From: Candidatus Omnitrophota bacterium | Lineage (GTDB): Bacteria; Omnitrophota; Gorgyraeia; Duberdicusellales; 4484-171 | Direction of reading: 5' to 3' | Assembly: GCA_021735045.1 (NCBI GenBank) | Contig: JAIPHU010000013.1 | Location: forward strand, 1-32,000 | DNA length: 32,000 bases | Shown here: positions 1 to 27,823 of the stretch, piece after piece | Layout: every line of letters begins with the position of its first letter | Position numbering within the stretch: the first letter of the stretch is position 1 | Notes under the pieces: model-generated | Told to the model about the DNA's origin: nothing | Database searches by the model: none | The model's input: the letters and a program-made list of their open reading frames with translations, nothing else | Translations under genes and position numbers: made by a program

Positions 1-2
1 AA

Positions 3-164
3 CTATCTAATAACCCTAAACCGGTTGGGTCACAAAAACTATCAAATTATAACTTATACCGCATACGCCAAGGAAATTATCGAGTAGTGTATTTTATAGA
101 CAACAAAAAACTTGAAATACAAATATTTAAAATCGGCCACAGAAAAGATATATATAAATTCTAA
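3..164 (+). CDS. RelE/ParE-family type II toxin, C-terminal part (5' end outside window)
   Basis: Frame 3 is open from the window edge and reads NPKPVGSQKLSNYNLYRIRQGNYRVVYFIDNKKLEIQIFKIGHRKDIYKF*. This carries the YRIR.G.YR..Y......L.I..IGHRKD.Y signature of RelE/ParE toxins. The stop TAA at 162-164 lies inside the first attC-like site. Confidence 0.7.
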   Translation, partial: LSNNPKPVGSQKLSNYNLYRIRQGNYRVVYFIDNKKLEIQIFKIGHRKDIYKF

Positions 165-237
165 CAACTCATTCGAGCGAGACCTCGCCCGCCAGCTTTC
201 GGCTGTGGAGGCGGGCAGCTCAATTCGAATGTTATGT
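159..237 (+). repeat. attC-like site 1
   Basis: The 5' end is TTCTAAC followed by AACTCATTCGAGC, and the 3' end is GCTCAATTCGAAT followed by GTTATGT (231-237). The GC-rich centre pairs GCCCGC with GCGGGC and CAGC with GCTG. ATT(C)GAGC pairs with GCTCAAT, leaving one extrahelical C on the 5' arm. Confidence 0.6.
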
Positions 238-264
238 GTAAAAAATAATTAAAAAAGGGGTGTC

Positions 265-1488
265 ATGAAAAAAATAATCACACTTATCCTTTTTTCACTA
301 CTTGTTTTACCTTCCTTTGCCGAAAACATCCAACTAAAATCAGGAAAAACTATAGAAGGAAAAATTATAGAAAAAACCAATTCATATATAAAAGTAGATA
401 CCAGTCTAGAAATACCTATAACTTATTACTTTGATGATATAGAAACTATTTATGAAAATACCAACCATGCAAAAAAAATATTAATAAACAATAAAGATAG
501 CAAAGAATTTTCAAAAGTAGAAAGAAAAATCTTTACAATTTCTAAAAATTTTATCATACAGGTATATCAATGTGAAAATTACAAACAATATCAACAAGTA
601 GTGCATGATTTTTGTTCACAAAAATTTATAGATGATTCCAAATCGAGACGTTCCGGGATGCCTGCTATTGAGCATAAAAAATATTATCCAAAATTCAAAA
701 CATGGAAAAAGTATGGAATTTATCCGAAACAATTGAATATTAAAAATATAAAATTTAACGATAAAAACAACAGGGCCCTAATTACTTATCATTATAAAGA
801 AAAAGGTCTTGTCGCTAAAAATATTGAAGATAGTAAAATTGACATAGATATTAAATATGATATTGGATTAATCAAACAAAAAGAATTTTGGAAAATAGAT
901 ACAGCTGAATTAGTGCAGAACGTTACAGAATATACCCAGAGAAATGATAGTGATACTGAAAATGATTGTTTCAAAAAAGCTCAAAAAATTGGAATAAAGG
1001 GCAGTAAATATCAACAAAGCAGCCAATTTAACAAAGCTCTTAGCTATTACCAAAAAGCCCTCAATACACTTAAAGACTGTTATCCTTTAAGTAAAACAAA
1101 CAGTCGAAAAGTTACAGGCCTTTATGGAAGTCTTTATCTAGGAATGGCTAGCATGCATATAGTTTTGGGAGAAGAAGAAAAAGGAATTAAAATTTGTAAA
1201 GAAGCTGTAAATAAATTTCCGCGTATGGCTAATGCATATTACAATATTATGGTAGGTGCTTATATTAAATTAGGTAAAACTCAGGAAGCTATAATATTTT
1301 GTAAAACATCCATTAAAAATAATCCTAACGACTGGCTTCCTTATTCTACACTTGGTAAATTATACTATCGTCTTGGAGATTATAAAAAGGCAAAAAATAA
1401 TCTGCAAAAAGCTTTCGATCTTAGTTCTAAAAAAGGAGAAATATCTATAAGCCAAGATATAAAAAGAATTTTAAATACTATACCTTAA
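265..1488 (+). CDS. Secreted protein with C-terminal TPR repeats (cassette ORF)
   Basis: 407-aa ORF with an N-terminal signal peptide (MKKIITLILFSLLVLPSFA). TPR-like repeats occupy the last ~170 aa (ALSYYQKAL, NAYYNIMVGAYIKLGKTQEAI, YSTLGKLYYRLGDYKKA). An AAGGGG Shine-Dalgarno (SD) motif precedes the ATG. Confidence 0.75.
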   Translation: MKKIITLILFSLLVLPSFAENIQLKSGKTIEGKIIEKTNSYIKVDTSLEIPITYYFDDIETIYENTNHAKKILINNKDSKEFSKVERKIFTISKNFIIQVYQCENYKQYQQVVHDFCSQKFIDDSKSRRSGMPAIEHKKYYPKFKTWKKYGIYPKQLNIKNIKFNDKNNRALITYHYKEKGLVAKNIEDSKIDIDIKYDIGLIKQKEFWKIDTAELVQNVTEYTQRNDSDTENDCFKKAQKIGIKGSKYQQSSQFNKALSYYQKALNTLKDCYPLSKTNSRKVTGLYGSLYLGMASMHIVLGEEEKGIKICKEAVNKFPRMANAYYNIMVGAYIKLGKTQEAIIFCKTSIKNNPNDWLPYSTLGKLYYRLGDYKKAKNNLQKAFDLSSKKGEISISQDIKRILNTIP

Positions 1489-1544
1489 CTTTTATTTTTT
1501 AATGAAAATAAAATAATAACAATAATAAAATTTAATCAATTAAA

Positions 1545-1619
1545 CATATAAAAATTCACTCCACCTGATCTTCGCAGCGCGCTTCTTGAAGCTCGGGCAG
1601 GTGAGTTCGAATGTTAGGT
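1545..1619 (+). repeat. attC-like site 2 (5' core degenerate)
   Basis: The 3' end is GAGTTCGAAT followed by GTTAGGT (1613-1619), an exact GTTRRRY. ACTC(C)ACCTG pairs with CAGGTGAGT, leaving an extrahelical C. The centre contains CTTC...GAAG and the palindrome AGCGCGCT. The 5' core reads CATATAAAA instead of ACATAACAA. Confidence 0.55.
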
Positions 1620-1645
1620 GTAAAGAATAAATTAAAAGGAGAATT

Positions 1646-2209
1646 ATGAAAAAGAAGAAGCCAATTGGAATTAATATTCTCGGGTGGTTGCTTGTTATTT
1701 CTGGAATTATTATGATTTTAAGGTTTATAAATGGAACTCAGATAAAAGTATTTAAGAATATAGAAGTCGTGAATTTCAAAAACATGTTTTACTATTGGTG
1801 GAATAGTTTATCTCCAATCGTTGGTCTTATTGCGGGCATAGCACTGATAAAATCAAAAAAATGGGGAAGGAACCTAGTTTTGATTTTGTTTGTTACCTCA
1901 ACTATTTTGGTTGTTGCGAACATGAAAAATAGATTTATCGAAACGAAGCAAAGTATTTTGGCAAGTGAGCAAGCTGACTTTGAGCAAAGGAAAAGCGAAA
2001 TTGAAAAAAAATATAAGCCAGACCAACAAGAAGAATCTATCGAGCAACTAAAACAAATATATCAAAAAAGAGAGAGAATGTTGCCGGTTATAGGTGGCGT
2101 TCTTTTTGGCATGATTTTGTTATGGAATATGGTGTTTCTTGTATATTTCTTCCGACCTAAAATAAGAAGATATTTTGAAGAGGGTGAGAAGCAATTTGGA
2201 GGAACATAG
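1646..2209 (+). CDS. Multi-pass membrane protein of unknown function (cassette ORF)
   Basis: 187-aa ORF with AAGGAG 7 nt upstream. Hydrophobic segments lie at the N terminus, centre and C terminus, around a charged E/K/Q-rich stretch. Confidence 0.7.
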   Translation: MKKKKPIGINILGWLLVISGIIMILRFINGTQIKVFKNIEVVNFKNMFYYWWNSLSPIVGLIAGIALIKSKKWGRNLVLILFVTSTILVVANMKNRFIETKQSILASEQADFEQRKSEIEKKYKPDQQEESIEQLKQIYQKRERMLPVIGGVLFGMILLWNMVFLVYFFRPKIRRYFEEGEKQFGGT

Positions 2210-2228
2210 AAGTAAAGACAATAAAGGC

Positions 2229-2324
2229 ACCTAACCAATCGCTGAAGCCAATCGGGAACTCGCGCATTTTTTAAGCCAAATACCGCTTAGACCGTTCCCT
2301 CTGGCTTAGCTCTATATGCTATGT
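2229..2324 (+). repeat. attC-like site 3 (divergent subtype)
   Basis: ACCTAAC (2229-2235) is an exact RYYYAAC. GCT(G)AAGCC pairs with GGCTTAGC, leaving one extrahelical G. GGGAAC pairs with GTTCCC. The 3' core is GCTATGT (2318-2324), one mismatch from GTTATGT. Read on the minus strand, the element ends in GTTAGGT. Confidence 0.45.
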
Positions 2325-3013
2325 ATAAATTAAAAAAAATATTTATTACGTTTACAGTAACCTTATTAGCTTGTACTGTTTTATCTCAATCAAAGATTCT
2401 TTCTGCTGAAGTCGATTTTTTAAAATATGACAACGAAAGAGTACAGCTTGATATATATAATCCCGGCAAAAGCTATTGCCCTGTTGTAATCTTAATTCAC
2501 GGAGCAGCTGGTATAGAAGGAGACAGAGCTATTCGATATAAAAGATTCGCTACTGATCTTATGAAAAAGGGAATTATTGCAATAAATGTCCATTACTTTG
2601 ACAGCAGTAAAAGAAGTTGGCTCAAAACGATTGCCAAAACCATTGATTATATTAAAAATATTCACAATGCTAATCCAAGAAAAATCGGATTAATAGGGTA
2701 CTCTCTAGGGGGGACCATTGCCCTTAAAGTAGCATCGTTGGATAATAGAATAAAATTACTAGTGATTAATTCAGGCTATATGCCTAGAAATTTTACTAAA
2801 AAAGATGCAGTAAATTTGCCTGAAACCTATGTACTAGCCGGAACCAAAGATAACGCTATTAATACTTTATATCAATTACAAAGGTGGTTTAAGGAGTTTA
2901 ATAAACCTTTTACAGCTAAAATTAATAAAGGATACGGGCATAGCATCCCGCTAGCAATGTTTTGGGACAATTGGGAAACAATTGTATCATTTGTAGCTGA
3001 TAGATTTAGATAA
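2321..3013 (+). CDS. Secreted alpha/beta-hydrolase (esterase / dienelactone-hydrolase-like; cassette ORF)
   Basis: 230-aa ORF with a signal peptide. It has the nucleophile elbow GYSLGG, a VILIHGAAG oxyanion-type segment, and C-terminal GTKDN and GYGHS segments consistent with an Asp/His catalytic pair. Confidence 0.75.
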   Translation: MYKLKKIFITFTVTLLACTVLSQSKILSAEVDFLKYDNERVQLDIYNPGKSYCPVVILIHGAAGIEGDRAIRYKRFATDLMKKGIIAINVHYFDSSKRSWLKTIAKTIDYIKNIHNANPRKIGLIGYSLGGTIALKVASLDNRIKLLVINSGYMPRNFTKKDAVNLPETYVLAGTKDNAINTLYQLQRWFKEFNKPFTAKINKGYGHSIPLAMFWDNWETIVSFVADRFR

Positions 3014-3026
3014 AATATTAATAAAT

Positions 3027-3123
3027 ACATAACAACTCACTCCAGCGGACCCAACTTCGCCCTAGATGGAGTTGGGGACAGTTCCTACGAGCTACGTAGG
3101 GCAGCTCAATTCAAAGGTTATGT
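3027..3123 (+). repeat. attC-like site 4
   Basis: ACATAAC (3027-3033) is the perfect reverse complement of GTTATGT (3117-3123). Internal GC-rich hairpins pair CCCAACT with AGTTGGG and CCTACG with CGTAGG. It shares the AACTCACTCCAGCGG 5' box with site 5. Confidence 0.6.
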
Positions 3124-3152
3124 GTATAAAATTGAATAAATAGGGGAAGAAA

Positions 3153-3992
3153 ATGAAAAGAATAGTGAGTTTAGTTTTAATACTTAACATAACCTTGTCT
3201 GTTTTTTGTACAGATGGTTTGGACAAGCAGTTGTTAGAAGTAGCCAAACAGGGAAATATCGCAGCGGTGAAAAAATTATTAGCTAACGGCGCAGATGTGG
3301 ATGCAAAAACTAAAGAAAATGTGACAGCATTGATGTGGGCAGCAGGAAAGGGCTATACTGAAACCGCTAAGATTTTATTAGCTGAAGGAGCAAACATCAA
3401 CGCTAAAGATCAATATGGTTTAACAGCCTTGATGGGGGCAGCACTTGGGAATGATCCTAAAACTGTAAAGGTTTTATTAGCTGAAGGAGCAAATGTTAAT
3501 GCTAGAACTAAAGAAGACCTGACAGCATTGATGTTGGCAGCAGGAAAGGGCTATACTGAAACCGCTAAAGTTTTATTAGCTGAAGGAGCAAATACTAATG
3601 CGAAAAATAAAAACGATGTGACAGCCTTGATGCTTGCGACACTTCGGGGTCATCCTGAAACCGCTAAGGTTTTATTAGCTGAAGGAGCAAATGTGAATGC
3701 GAAAGCTAAAAATGGTAGAACAGCCTTGATGGGGGCGGCACTTAATGGTCATACTAAAATCGTCAAGATTTTGCTTTCCGAAGGAGCAAATGTGAATACC
3801 AGAACTAAAAATGATGTGACAGCCTTGATGCAGGCAGCATTTGGTGGTCATCTTGAAACCGCTAAAGCTTTGTTGGCCAAAGGCGCAACTGTTCACATAA
3901 GAGCTAAAAATGGTAAGACAGCATTAATGTGGGCAGCAGCTAAAGGACATATAAAAATAGTAAACTTACTCAAAAAACACGGGGGCCCATAA
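3153..3992 (+). CDS. Secreted ankyrin-repeat protein (cassette ORF)
   Basis: 279-aa ORF with a signal peptide followed by about eight 33-aa ANK units (TALM.AA..G....AK.LLAEGANVNAK). The 99-nt periodicity is visible at DNA level. Confidence 0.9.
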   Translation: MKRIVSLVLILNITLSVFCTDGLDKQLLEVAKQGNIAAVKKLLANGADVDAKTKENVTALMWAAGKGYTETAKILLAEGANINAKDQYGLTALMGAALGNDPKTVKVLLAEGANVNARTKEDLTALMLAAGKGYTETAKVLLAEGANTNAKNKNDVTALMLATLRGHPETAKVLLAEGANVNAKAKNGRTALMGAALNGHTKIVKILLSEGANVNTRTKNDVTALMQAAFGGHLETAKALLAKGATVHIRAKNGKTALMWAAAKGHIKIVNLLKKHGGP

Positions 3993-4050
3993 ACAGAAGT
4001 AGGGATAGTTTTCTATTGAATAGGAACAATAAAAGGAAGAAAAAATAACC

Positions 4051-4135
4051 ACACAACAACTCACTCCAGCGGATCTAAAACCGCGGCCTTTTAGGCTTGC
4101 GGACGGTTTTCGGCCGCTGAGTTCGAATGTTATGT
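4051..4135 (+). repeat. attC-like site 5
   Basis: The 5' end is ACACAAC, then AACTC, ACTC and CAGCGG. The 3' end is CCGCTG, AGTT, CGAAT and GTTATGT (4129-4135). CAGCGG pairs with CCGCTG, and AACT with AGTT. The centre pairs CCGCGGCC with GGCCGC and is GC-rich. Confidence 0.6.
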
Positions 4136-4165
4136 GTAAGAAATAAATAAAAAAGGAGGAGATGA

Positions 4166-4741
4166 ATGAGTGAAACTCAGAAAAAAACTTTGGGCATGGC
4201 AATAGCTAGTTTAGTTTTTGGATGTTTGATTCTTATCCCTATTTTAAACATACCCTTTGCTATAACTGCTATTATCTTAGGAATTATTGCTTTAAATAAA
4301 ATTTCTAGTAATAAAGATACTTTAAAAGGTAGAGGTTTAGCCATCTCTGGCATTGTTCTTGGTGGTGTAGGAATTGTTTTAATTCCCATAATTGCAATGC
4401 TTGCTGCAATAGCTATACCAAATCTTTTAAGGACAAGGATGAATGCCGGTGAAGCCAACGCAAAAGCAACCCTACGAATACTTTCAACAGCTGCTGAAAG
4501 TTATGCTGCAGCCAACAATGGAGAATATCCTTTTTCTGCATACAGTTTAACCTCAGCAGAACCACCATACCTTAATGAAAATTATACATCCGGCACCCAT
4601 CAAGGATATAAGTTTAGTTGTGAATTTGACTCCAATAGTTATGAATGTGTAGCTATTCCTGAAAATTGTGGTACTACAGGAACTGAAATATATACTATAG
4701 AAAAAGGAGGAATACTTTCAGAAACTGATTGTGCAAATTAA
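4166..4741 (+). CDS. Membrane protein: DUF4190-like N-terminal TM hairpin fused to a type IV pilin-like domain (cassette ORF)
   Basis: 191-aa ORF with AAGGAGGAG upstream. Two or three TM segments are followed by LAAIAIPNLLRTRMNAGEANAKATLRILSTAAESYAAANNGEYP. This is the alpha-1 helix signature of type IV pilins/pseudopilins, but without the G/FTLIE prepilin cleavage motif. Confidence 0.7.
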   Translation: MSETQKKTLGMAIASLVFGCLILIPILNIPFAITAIILGIIALNKISSNKDTLKGRGLAISGIVLGGVGIVLIPIIAMLAAIAIPNLLRTRMNAGEANAKATLRILSTAAESYAAANNGEYPFSAYSLTSAEPPYLNENYTSGTHQGYKFSCEFDSNSYECVAIPENCGTTGTEIYTIEKGGILSETDCAN

Positions 4742-4763
4742 TAAAAAAATTATAAATAAACCC

Positions 4764-4942
4764 AGATAACAACTCATTCGGGCGAACTGAACTAAGGGGA
4801 CGTTTCCCTCGTTTACAACCCTTTACCGGCCAATGAATTATAAACTGGCATTTTACACTATTTGCGAAAAACACTGTTTTATAAGTTATTTATTTGCAGT
4901 GACTTATAACAGAGGGAAACGCCCCCTCTTGATCGATTATAG
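4764..4942 (+). repeat. Terminal, long and degenerate attC-like element at the array/core boundary
   Basis: The 5' end AGATAAC plus AACTCATTCGGGCG matches the family. A 15-bp inverted repeat pairs GGGGACGTTTCCCTC (4796-4810) with GAGGGAAACGCCCCC (4912-4926), with one mismatch, and encloses an AT-rich ~100-nt loop. The 3' end TTGATCGAT plus TATAGAT only loosely resembles GAGTTCGAAT plus GTTATGT. Confidence 0.4.
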
Positions 4943-4969
4943 ATGCATAATGAATAAATTTAGATAAAA

Positions 4970-5407
4970 ATGAAAGTATTAATTAATCGAATAAATAAAG
5001 GTAAAGTAGAAGTAGCAAAAGAAGTTATTGCTTCGATCGATAAAGGTTTGGCCGTATTTGTGGGGATTGAAGCTGGTAATACCGAATCAAACCTTGTTAC
5101 TGCTGCAAAAAAGATTGTAAATATAAGGATATTTGAAGATAAAACTGGTAAGATGTCTAGATCGGTTAAACAAGCAGGGCTCCCGGTGCTTTGTATCCCT
5201 AATTTTACTCTTTGTGCTTCAACAGAAAAAGGAAGGCGGCCATCTTTTGAAAAAGCAATGAAACCAGAAAAAGCCAAAAAATTATTTGATAAATTCTTAA
5301 ATTTACTTCATAATGAATTAGATAATATTCAGTCGGGAATATTTGGAGCCCATATGGATATAAAGTTAGAACTCGATGGCCCAGTAAACATTATATTAGA
5401 AATATAA
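4970..5407 (+). CDS. dtd: D-aminoacyl-tRNA deacylase
   Basis: 145 aa. It carries VNIRIFEDKTGKM, NFTLCASTEKGRRPSF and GIFGAHMDIKLELDGPVNIILE, which match the conserved Dtd blocks (NLRIF.D..GKMN, QFTL.A....G.RPSF, G.FGA.M.V.L.NDGPVT). Confidence 0.85.
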   Translation: MKVLINRINKGKVEVAKEVIASIDKGLAVFVGIEAGNTESNLVTAAKKIVNIRIFEDKTGKMSRSVKQAGLPVLCIPNFTLCASTEKGRRPSFEKAMKPEKAKKLFDKFLNLLHNELDNIQSGIFGAHMDIKLELDGPVNIILEI

Positions 5408-25745: not shown

Positions 25746-27740
25746 ATGGCAACAAATAAAATTAAATCACAAATTAGAGGTCTTCGTGAAAAAATCAGAG
25801 AAGCCGATTATCATTATTACGTACAAAATGACCCTCAGATATCTGATAAAGAATATGATGACCTGCTAAAAAATTTAAAATCTCTAGAAAAAAAACACCC
25901 TCAACTAATAACTCCTGATTCTCCCACTCAAAGAGTAAGTGGCGGGCTTCTAGAAGAATTCCCTGCAGTAAAACATAAAACAAAAATGCTTTCTTTAGAT
26001 AATACCTATTCAATTGAGGAACTGAAAGAATGGGAAAAAAAGATGAAAAGGATTTTAAAAAAAGATATAACCTTTAGCTACATCTGCGAGTTAAAAATTG
26101 ATGGGATTAGTTGTTCACTTAACTACCAAAACGGCCGCTTAGCTAGGGGGTTAACTCGAGGCGATGGCCAAAAAGGCGAGGACATAACTCCCAATATAAA
26201 AACTATCCCTTCAGTTCCTTTAAAATTGCGCAAAAATCATCCTAAAAACTTAGAAGTTAGAGGTGAAGTCTATATTAGCAAAAAAGATTTTGAAAAATTA
26301 AACCAACAGCGTCTAGAAAAAAGTAAAAATCCTTTTGCTAACCCCAGAAATGCTGCCGGCGGTTCACTAAAACTTCTTAACCCGAGCCTAGTTGCTAAAC
26401 GAAATCTAAAATGTTTTATTCATTCTTTTGGCTGGATAGAAGGTTATAAATTTAATTCACAACAAGAATTCTTTAAAAAAATAACCAAGTGGGGCCTAAG
26501 AACCCAAAAAGAAAATAAACTTTGCAAAAACCTAGAACAAGTTATCAACTACTGCAGAACTTTCCAGCAAAAACGGGATAGCCTCAACTATGAAGCAGAC
26601 GGAGTAGTAGTCAAGGTTAATGATCTAGATTTACAAAAAAAATTAGGTTCTACTCAAAAATCACCACGCTGGGCAGTAGCTTATAAGTTTCCCGCAATAA
26701 GAAAAACTACTAAAATAAAAAAAGTAGAGTTCGGAGTAGGCCGCACCGGAATTATTACCCCGGTTGCAATTCTACAACCCGTCCGTTGCGGAGGTGCAAC
26801 TATAAAACGAACAACCCTGCATAATTTTGATGAAGTTAAACGGCTTGGTGTAAAAATTGAAGATACAGTTTTAATTGAAAGAGCCGGTGATGTTATACCT
26901 AAAATCATTAAAGTTATCAACTCAAAGCGTAATGGCAAAGAAAAACCAATAACTGAGCCAAAAAAATGTCCAGTTTGTGATGGAGCAGTGGAAAAAGAAG
27001 AAGTCTATCTCTTTTGCCTTAATCCAAACTGTCCCAGCAAGCTTAAACGCTCTTTAGTTCATTTTGCCAGCCGCGGGGCAATGGATATAGAAGGAATGGG
27101 AGAAAGCCTAATTGAAGAACTGGTTAATAGAGGGCTTATTCATAATATTTCAGATATATACAAACTAACTAAAAAAGACTTACTAACTTTACCGTTATTT
27201 AAAGAGAAAAAAGCAAACAATATAATAAAATCAATTTCAAAAAGTAAAAATCAATCTTTAAGCAATCTTTTGTTTGGCTTAGGCATTCCTCATGTTGGAA
27301 AAAAAGCTGCTAATACTTTAACTGACCATTTCAAATCCCTTGATAAAATTATTCACTTAAAAGAAAAAGATTTAGAAAAAATAGATGAAATTGGGCCAGT
27401 TATGGCTAAATCAATTGTAAAGTTCTTTGCACAAAAATCTGTTAATAAAACATTAAAAGAATTTAAAAGATTAGGGCTATCACCAAAAAAAGAAGAGGGT
27501 AAAAAATCTGATCGGCTAAACAAAAAAACTTTCGTTTTTACCGGCCAACTTAACAACTTCAGCCGTAATCAAGCCCAAAAGAAGGTGGAGGAGTTAGGAG
27601 GGAGATGGTCATCATCGATAAGCAGCAAAACCGACTTTCTAGTCGCTGGCAAAGACCCTGGTTCTAAATATAGCCAGGCAAAAGAAAAAAAGGTAAAAAT
27701 TCTTTCAGAAGATAATTTTCTGAAATTGGTTGGCATTTAA
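25746..27740 (+). CDS. ligA: NAD-dependent DNA ligase
   Basis: 664 aa. It has the adenylation motif CELKIDG, a Cys4 zinc finger (CPVCDG...CLNPNC), an HhH region and a C-terminal BRCT (FVFTGQL). Confidence 0.97.
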   Translation: MATNKIKSQIRGLREKIREADYHYYVQNDPQISDKEYDDLLKNLKSLEKKHPQLITPDSPTQRVSGGLLEEFPAVKHKTKMLSLDNTYSIEELKEWEKKMKRILKKDITFSYICELKIDGISCSLNYQNGRLARGLTRGDGQKGEDITPNIKTIPSVPLKLRKNHPKNLEVRGEVYISKKDFEKLNQQRLEKSKNPFANPRNAAGGSLKLLNPSLVAKRNLKCFIHSFGWIEGYKFNSQQEFFKKITKWGLRTQKENKLCKNLEQVINYCRTFQQKRDSLNYEADGVVVKVNDLDLQKKLGSTQKSPRWAVAYKFPAIRKTTKIKKVEFGVGRTGIITPVAILQPVRCGGATIKRTTLHNFDEVKRLGVKIEDTVLIERAGDVIPKIIKVINSKRNGKEKPITEPKKCPVCDGAVEKEEVYLFCLNPNCPSKLKRSLVHFASRGAMDIEGMGESLIEELVNRGLIHNISDIYKLTKKDLLTLPLFKEKKANNIIKSISKSKNQSLSNLLFGLGIPHVGKKAANTLTDHFKSLDKIIHLKEKDLEKIDEIGPVMAKSIVKFFAQKSVNKTLKEFKRLGLSPKKEEGKKSDRLNKKTFVFTGQLNNFSRNQAQKKVEELGGRWSSSISSKTDFLVAGKDPGSKYSQAKEKKVKILSEDNFLKLVGI

Positions 27741-27741
27741 T

Positions 27742-27769
27742 GTAGGGGCACATTGCAATGTGCCCCTAC
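27742..27769. repeat. 28-bp GTAG...CTAC palindrome, copy 3, directly after the ligA stop
   Basis: GTAGGGGCACATTG/CAATGTGCCCCTAC is a perfect palindrome. It has the same 8-bp ends as the rsmE copies but a different, self-complementary centre. It is followed by a partial repeat, ATGCAATGTGATGTGCC. Confidence 0.7.
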
Positions 27770-27823
27770 ATGCAATGTGATGTGCCTCTTGATTTTTTAA
27801 CAATATCATCTATAATAATTGAA

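Follow-up and report, generated by a model that had tools for sequence, protein, structure and literature searches.

Positions 1–4789 of the Candidatus Omnitrophota DNA analysed here (32,000 nucleotides (nt) of contig JAIPHU010000013.1, hereafter the window) very probably constitute an integron-type gene-cassette array with attC recombination sites, as judged from the sequence. Five complete elements (attC 1–5, Table 1), each situated between co-oriented single open reading frames (ORFs), were identified as attC sites, and every sequence-level feature tested that defines such sites was present. The initial annotation of this DNA had proposed a co-oriented, attC-bounded array abutting core genes in an uncultivated low-GC lineage, either a cluster of attC sites lacking an integron integrase (CALIN, a term whose definition reportedly comes from Cury et al. 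2016, IntegronFinder) or the far end of an integron, and both this core reading and the positions given for the elements between the ORFs hold. We consider it probable, from the comparisons described below, that the array is a partly decayed CALIN served in trans.

Sequence and folding of the attC sites

The five elements have a GC content of 47–54%, against 31.7% for the whole window; the 60–70% first reported was an overestimate, and a sixth element proposed at 4764–4942 measures 39%. The 5' motif [A/C]ATAAC-AACTC-AYTCsrGCG occurs four times within positions 1–5000, where no copies are expected, and is absent from 5–32 kb. A motif scan likewise located four copies of the 3' motif TTCGAATGTTATGTG, and the common 3' end TTCGAAT-GTTATGTG is present in four copies. 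The conserved ends are complementary, as noticed at the outset: in attC 4, ACATAAC (3027–3033) and GTTATGT (3117–3123) are exact reverse complements.

Alignment of the bottom strands of the five complete elements, on which the layout and pair counts given here are based, places the R box, spacer, L box and bulged base in the same register in all five. The R box is 9 bp long (CACATAACA / TGTTRTGTG), the arms of the unpaired spacer are TTCGA and GAGT (5 nt and 4 nt, in all sites), and the L box comprises 3+6 bp with one unpaired base at a fixed place. This bulged base, between L-box pairs 3 and 4 of the bottom strand, is a G in four sites and a C in attC 3. The single unpaired base that had been described for attC 1–3 is therefore real and extends to all five sites, and the 5-nt bulges that had been ascribed to attC 5 turn out to be the unpaired central spacer common to all of them. 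The bulge and spacer columns coincide with the model columns of these features in class 1 attC sites.

Between the L boxes the site centres cannot be aligned to one another, yet each contains stems, and the elements vary in length from 75 to 97 bp. Of the 90 pair cells in the five sites, 84% are formed, and sliding the partner columns lowers this to 33–39%. Pairing reaches 93% in the L helix, six of whose nine pairs show compensatory changes, and 76% in the R helix. An AAC...GTT arrangement with 5–9 bp of R pairing is found in attC 1, 4 and 5, and the R box is decayed in the remaining two sites (attC 2 and 3). Mean column identity among the window sites is ∼62%.

Covariance-model searches

Two covariance models were used, R1, trained on the five window sites only, and R2, for which training was confined to 11 attC sites of class 1 integrons, from regions retrieved from plasmids through IntI1, and both searches were run with filters off. 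Applied to the whole window, R2 gave exactly five matches, all on the − strand and with E-values from 1e-11 to 2.5e-3, spanning 4047–4142 (attC 5), 155–244 (attC 1), 3023–3130 (attC 4), 1542–1626 (attC 2) and 2225–2331 (attC 3); elsewhere in the 32 kb the next best match reached 9.8 bits (E 1.1). In the reverse direction, R1 detected, each time on the expected strand, 11 of the 13 cassette ends annotated in class 1 integrons, the attC sites in question being those of cmlA1, aadA2, aadA1, aadB, psp, qacL, aac(6')-29a/b, aac(6')-Ib and blaVIM-2, and no other match at E<4 was present in the 52 kb of class 1 regions. A search with an attC model, which the initial annotation had suggested as a check, thus gives the matches it called for. 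Rfam scans of the window, of positions 4740–4980 and of L030 (a contig of the Omnitrophota metagenome-assembled genome (MAG) BLK3-3.bin.157) returned no attC match and no genuine match.

attC 4 and 5 have in common the 19-mer AACAACTCACTCCAGCGGA, which is present in 102 metagenome contigs (27–62% GC), many of them with arrays of R1 matches. Among the matches listed, R1 arrays are also found in Rhodanobacteraceae, Lysobacterales (loci L010, L088 and L039), Gemmataceae, Nitrospirota and other genomes, all of which came from a degenerate 17-mer scan with many chance matches that were then filtered with R1. Because the sites fit the class 1-trained model and their motif is widespread in metagenomes, they are by these measures canonical attC sites, and the suggestion that they represent a new-looking family has to be abandoned. 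Class 1 attC sites (the 59-base elements of, for example, aadA1, aadA2, aadB and cmlA1) have the same R''-spacer-L''-variable centre-L'-spacer-R' layout, the same TAAC/GTTA core and the bulged G at the same position of the bottom strand, and the models detect one another's sites. The window array differs from class 1 integrons in its host, a 32% GC Omnitrophota chromosome instead of a plasmid or transposon, in a cargo other than antibiotic resistance, in the degeneracy of several sites and in that no adjacent intI or attI was seen.

The array locus in relatives

We compared the locus in relatives whose UvrA proteins are 83–90% identical to that of the window, which itself is 100% identical to an NCBI protein of a ‘Candidatus Omnitrophica bacterium’ MAG, encoded on a 34,108-bp contig. 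The gene order dtd-lgt-Pro_CA_2-nadE-folK-panC-nadX-uvrA-TPR-tolQR is kept, with the differences falling immediately upstream of dtd, in a slot between a radical-SAM (rSAM) gene and dtd that exists in four states, an empty one and three filled with differing sets of cassettes. In the empty state (L242, from the same MAG as L030) the rSAM gene is followed by 104 nt and dtd, with no attC and no cassettes. In two related MAGs (L243 and L244) the rSAM gene is followed by 45 nt, an RHH-ParE cassette, Phd-YoeB and its attC, NTase-HepT and its attC, a 156-aa ORF, 60 nt from the truncated start of a window cassette 1 homologue, a 140-nt element and dtd. A more distant relative (L245) carries ankyrin ORFs, a CopG pair and an RHH-ParE cassette whose attC lies directly before dtd, and the window itself has the tail of a ParE cassette, attC 1 and five other cassettes before dtd.

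The identity of the window to the L243 ParE cassette stops where attC 1 begins, and the leader of cassette 1 stands behind the R' box GTTATGT in the window and behind GTTAGAT in L243. The ParE cassette is the first of the array in L243 and the last in L245. This shifting position, together with the differing R' boxes, indicates that the cassettes are not fixed; ORFs fixed and syntenic in all relatives had been named as an outcome that would speak against an integron. Several of the junctions between one relative and another are cassette boundaries. Since the slot holds different cassette sets in relatives, the window cluster appears to have been remodelled and not merely eroded.

The terminal attC of L245 joins the chromosome (4480–4500) at ...GAGCTCATGT followed by ATTATAAAAA, and the corresponding empty site in L242 (4465–4490) reads CAATAG followed by ATTATAAGCAT. 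Comparison of the two gives a hint of a secondary site as the point of entry for the first cassette, the common 7-mer being weak evidence in DNA this rich in AT. L245 also contains a ∼190-nt non-coding tandem duplication (3640–3940) just upstream of its RHH-ParE cassette. Three Logan contigs (L001, L002 and L003, short-read assemblies of the source samples SRR12088347/8) end inside attC sites, at window positions ∼167, 1635 and 3073, as expected for repeats, and this restricts how much of the array context they show.

An integron integrase in the clade

Among the matches listed, the best external R1 match (64.5 bits) lies in L030, which encodes a 429-aa integron integrase at 854–2143 (TIGR02249, 400.5 bits against a cutoff of 265). 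The integrase is followed by a divergent attI-like GTTAGAT, a first cassette and an attC (ACATCTAACAACTCACTCCAGCGGA..GCCGCTGAGTTCGAATGTTATCTGG) whose R and L boxes are near-identical to those of attC 4 and 5 of the window; a second cassette encodes an AbrB/MazE-like antitoxin with its own promoter. The clade therefore possesses an integron integrase; the initial annotation had held that the lack of any intI-like recombinase in the genome would argue against its reading. The protein is already named ‘integron integrase’ by NCBI and has thousands of homologues. Some 100 N-terminal residues precede its TIGR02249 match (residues 105–424), and among the top 120 homologues the majority share a length of ∼430 aa and align over 98–100% of the query. 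In L201 we found seven such sites, divergent from an IntI N-terminus.

L030 resembles the window in its attC type, in its toxin-antitoxin cargo, in a nearby copy of the 140-nt element and in GC content (33.6% against 31.7%). It differs in possessing intI, attI and a Pc-like promoter and in lying at a MATE-speH locus; the rSAM-dtd slot that houses the window array is empty in that MAG.

Among the metagenome loci with this type of site, a ∼520-bp unit is 98.9% identical between L133 (1431–1954) and L136 (117–640), with both flanks unrelated. The identity runs from the GTTAGGC of the upstream R' to ..GAGTTCTAAC, immediately before the GTTAGGC of the unit's own attC, and by these boundaries we regard the unit as a textbook mobile cassette.

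Proposed organisation of the array and alternative explanations

Integron integrases recognise the attC hairpin and cut one strand, and cassettes are excised and inserted at the G/TT of R'. In our proposal the window would hold five complete cassettes and the tail of a sixth, encoding a ParE toxin-antitoxin system. In every cassette a single ORF, which has a ribosome-binding site of its own, would precede a canonical attC. The attC hairpins, formed by the bottom (−) strand, would comprise an R box with the AAC/GTT crossover, an unpaired central spacer of 4–5 nt, an L box carrying one extrahelical G, and a variable tip. The array would lie in the Omnitrophota chromosome between the radical-SAM gene and dtd, most likely without an integrase of its own, and the integron integrase of the clade, encoded elsewhere in relatives, beside a MATE gene and speH, would serve it in trans. 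Partial decay would account for the loss of AAC from R'' of attC 2, GCT in place of GTT in attC 3, the L-box mismatch of attC 4 and the halved terminal site.

The term CALIN is used for a cluster of attC sites lacking an integron integrase, in a definition quoted in PMC11386340. The window contains at least two co-oriented attC sites (five complete ones), shows decay of the kind expected of CALINs, and has no integrase in the 27 kb to the right of the array; the left end was not seen directly, and for that side the assignment draws on homology to L243. A different reading, which we think quite unlikely, takes the array to be the distal end of a complete chromosomal integron, with intI and attI just upstream of position 1. 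Such an arrangement would fit the orientation, + strand cassettes placing intI on the left and making the right end the distal one, as in L030 and L201, and the window does begin inside a cassette. However, in L243 the ParE cassette, 98% identical to that of the window, is the first unit, separated from the rSAM gene by 45 nt that hold no intI, the 34.1-kb source contig extends at most ∼2.1 kb outside the 32-kb window, and the intI genes of related MAGs are at the MATE-speH locus (L030 and L241). It is on these three points that the assignment as a CALIN is based. A complete integron would have intI, attI and Pc next to its first cassette; a tblastn search of the 32-kb window found no tyrosine recombinase, in agreement with the earlier report that an IntI-type recombinase is missing from it, and the homologous left end of L243 has none.

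Whether the sites still recombine is a separate matter. The array could be a fossil, its attC sites no longer recombining and the relatives differing by deletion and homologous recombination only, a reading that we regard as rather unlikely though one to be taken seriously. The defects in attC 2, 3 and 4 and the truncation of the terminal site suit it, as do the several breakpoints between genomes that lie away from G/TT and the lack of attC sites after ParE and after the 156-aa ORF in L243. Against it, attC 1 and 5 are intact, with scores as high as those of functional class 1 sites, two different R' boxes (window and L243) precede the leader of cassette 1, the ParE cassette is first in L243 and last in L245, and an intact IntI exists in the clade. 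It is hardly credible, finally, that the elements are intergenic repeated palindromes (REP/BIME-like) or terminators instead of recombination sites. They are GC-rich hairpins 3' of ORFs, as such sequences would be, but no T tract follows them and a terminator scan made no calls at these positions; the attC models match in both directions, the same site type adjoins an integron integrase, and the element does not occur among the 27 kb of core genes, where scattered copies had been foreseen as the sign of a misreading. A promoter and terminator scan of positions 1–5400 gave no more sites than in shuffled sequences.

Several points weigh against the proposed organisation. R2 is a surrogate attC model, not IntegronFinder's own, and its alignment was made with the structure of R1, though all its sequences are independent of the window. 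Stems are present in each site centre, as had been claimed, and only attC 1 and 5 clearly exceed shuffled sequences when folded as single-stranded DNA (Table 1); attC 2–4 give no significant gain (z −1.2 to −1.7) and have defects at conserved positions, so that attC 1 and 5 alone look fully competent. Besides the junctions at cassette boundaries there are others at R'' or within ORFs and not at G/TT, for example at the ParE 3' end and in the 156-aa ORF of L243. In L243 the attC after ParE has been lost and the 156-aa ORF runs into a bare R'. The off-boundary junctions indicate that ordinary deletions also shaped the array. The lack of an intI to the left of position 1 is inferred from the left end of L243. 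An integrase of the window's own genome, or of samples SRR12088347/8, was not found through homologues of the L030 IntI, the closest of which (P0002 and P0003) come from other samples. The anatomy of the sites, the two-way model matches, the cassette differences between relatives and the IntI of the clade are observed directly, whereas current activity and expression of the array are inferred.

Sedentary chromosomal integrons, such as the Vibrio superintegron with its VCR sites (Vibrio cholerae repeats) and those of Xanthomonadales, are likewise chromosomal, carry toxin-antitoxin cassettes and have R and L boxes that are similar from site to site. The window array, of only 5–6 cassettes, ∼62% column identity and no integrase seen, is not a large homogeneous array of that kind; the column identity of VCRs is typically ∼80% or more. 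A literature search on integrons and attC sites in Omnitrophota found nothing pertinent. The array adds a well-documented chromosomal cassette cluster in a phylum known only from metagenomes, and the four-state slot, together with an integrase at another locus, offers a natural case for the origin of CALINs, their remodelling in trans and their decay. What is known of attC sites themselves is unchanged, since the sites are canonical and integron integrases are already annotated in the phylum by NCBI.

Features of the array

The cargo described in the initial annotation is borne out by the products listed in Table 1, a RelE/ParE fragment, a secreted TPR protein, a membrane protein, a DLH hydrolase, an ankyrin-repeat protein and a DUF4190 protein.

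Table 1. Coordinates of the cassettes, attC sites and flanking features in the window.
Feature	Position	Strand	Description and evidence
ParE/RelE-family toxin gene, 3' end	1–164	+	Translation; TIGR02385 RelE_StbE, 21 bits on 53-aa fragment
attC 1	159–237	+ (top); predicted folding/recombining bottom strand −	R2 34.1 bits, E 6e-8; bottom-strand fold −18.1 kcal/mol, z −3.5
Cassette 1	238–1544	+	ORF 265–1488, 407 aa, secreted TPR protein, own Shine-Dalgarno
attC 2	1545–1619	+	R2 30.9 bits, E 5e-7; R' GTTAGGT, R'' decayed (AAA for AAC)
Cassette 2 ORF	1646–2209	+	187-aa membrane protein, no Pfam family
attC 3 (weakest)	2229–2324	+	R2 18.6 bits, E 2.5e-3; extrahelical C on bottom strand
Cassette 3 ORF	2321–3013	+	230-aa secreted dienelactone-hydrolase/alpha-beta hydrolase; PF01738 DLH, E 2.5e-10
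attC 4	3027–3123	+	R2 34.0 bits, E 6e-8; R boxes perfectly complementary; two inner hairpins in centre
Cassette 4 ORF	3153–3992	+	279-aa secreted ankyrin-repeat protein; PF12796 Ank_2, E 7e-76
attC 5 (best-formed)	4051–4135	+	R2 46.4 bits, E 1.2e-11; bottom-strand fold −21.3 kcal/mol, z −4.3
Cassette 5 ORF	4166–4741	+	191 aa, DUF4190 (PF13828, E 1.4e-14) and pilin-like segment
Terminal attC, left half (R''-spacer-L'')	4764–4789	+	AGATAAC-AACTC-ATTCGGGCG, motif match
Conserved element, ∼140 nt	4790–4930	−	15–17-bp closing inverted repeat
Native chromosomal flank and first core gene dtd (4970–5407)	4931–5407	+	PF02580

The gene fragment at the left end closes an RHH-ParE toxin-antitoxin cassette; it terminates in TAA (162–164), a stop codon that falls within the R'' box of attC 1. 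Window positions 1–158 are 98.1% identical to L243 2070–2227, within a gene matching PF05016 ParE_toxin, and the ParE fragment is 91% identical to L245 4257–4442. In attC 1 the boxes are R'' TTCTAAC and R' GTTATGT (231–237), and the extrahelical base is a C on the top strand and a G on the bottom strand. A start homologous to that of cassette 1 is found behind a different attC in L243 (4201–4260, 82% identical). The region of attC 2 (1534–1653) is 79% identical, including its centre, to L243 3620–3739, which holds the attC that follows an unrelated HepT. After attC 2 and after its L243 counterpart there is a small membrane protein, the two being alike by eye (WGR motif) with no search match behind the likeness. 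In the metagenome array L184, an ORF immediately 3' of an attC encodes a homologue of the cassette 2 product (27% identical).

The R' box of attC 3 (2318–2324) reads GCTATGT and not GTTRRRY, which puts a C at the crossover, and it contains the ATG of ORF 3 (2321). attC 4 looks chimeric, its left arm ACTCCAGCGG matching attC 5 and its right arm CAGCTCAAT matching attC 1; its L'' is like that of attC 5 but its L' like that of attC 1, and the L box therefore pairs poorly. Ankyrin ORFs 42–51% identical to that of cassette 4 are present in the L245 array at the same locus. attC 5 has the 9-bp R box, the 5-nt/4-nt spacer and the 3+6-bp L box with an extrahelical G. Toxin-antitoxin cassettes of L243 and L030 have their own TTGACA...TA(C/T)AGT promoters and palindromic operators (L243 1715–1765 and 2255–2306; L030 ∼150–105, − strand), and would therefore be expressed independently of the integron promoter Pc.

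At the right end, the six sites first counted resolve into the five complete attC sites, and the supposed sixth (4764–4942) into the left half of an attC at 4764–4789 and a separate element at 4790–4930. The half site lacks its right half, the one that can be cleaved; it gave no R1 or R2 match, and no further L' or R' motif was found in the window. In the empty L242 site CAATAGATTATAAGCAT corresponds to the flank GATCGATTATAGATGCAT, and because of this we take the flank to be native dtd-upstream DNA and not a decayed R'. For the same reason GATCGATTATAGATG, to the right of the 140-nt element, was rejected as a decayed L'/R' of a sixth site, the same sequence being present in the L242 empty site. 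The 140-nt element was itself considered as the long variable centre of a sixth site and rejected, as it stands alone in L030 without adjoining attC halves.

The 140-nt element

The 140-nt element is 85% identical to L030 3742–3883, between the MATE gene and speH, and also precedes dtd in L243 (about 4262–4402) and L244. Neither the empty L242 site nor L245 has it, nor does the gap between MATE and speH that is orthologous in L241; orthologous sites with no array thus lack the element. The three known copies all lie beside cassette or integron DNA, those of the window and of L243/L244 being at the same locus and so one independent occurrence, with L030 supplying the third copy. The consensus fold of the three copies on the − strand (−52.7 kcal/mol, 49 pairs) consists of a 17-bp closing stem and three hairpins, in which ten pairs are kept by one-sided G·U changes, one is compensatory and four are broken. 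On the + strand the fold reaches −37.9 kcal/mol, with two pairs kept by one-sided changes, one compensatory and nine broken, so that the substitutions maintain pairing on the − strand only. Rfam assigned the element to no family, the best match scoring 18 bits against a threshold of 105.

A role as cis-regulatory leader of the L030 MATE gene is unlikely, since the orthologous gap in L241 lacks the element and no gene follows on that strand in the window or in L243. The element may be a strand-specific structured RNA or a miniature inverted-repeat transposable element (MITE), between which three copies do not decide. We put forward, tentatively and with more doubt than belief, that it could be an undescribed Omnitrophota structured RNA or RNA-like mobile element tied to the boundaries of integrons and cassette arrays.

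Far to the right of the array, a GC-rich perfect palindrome (GGGGCACATTGCAATGTGCCCC, 27736–27820) between two genes gave a spurious weak Rfam match to a long non-coding RNA (lncRNA) and is probably a terminator.

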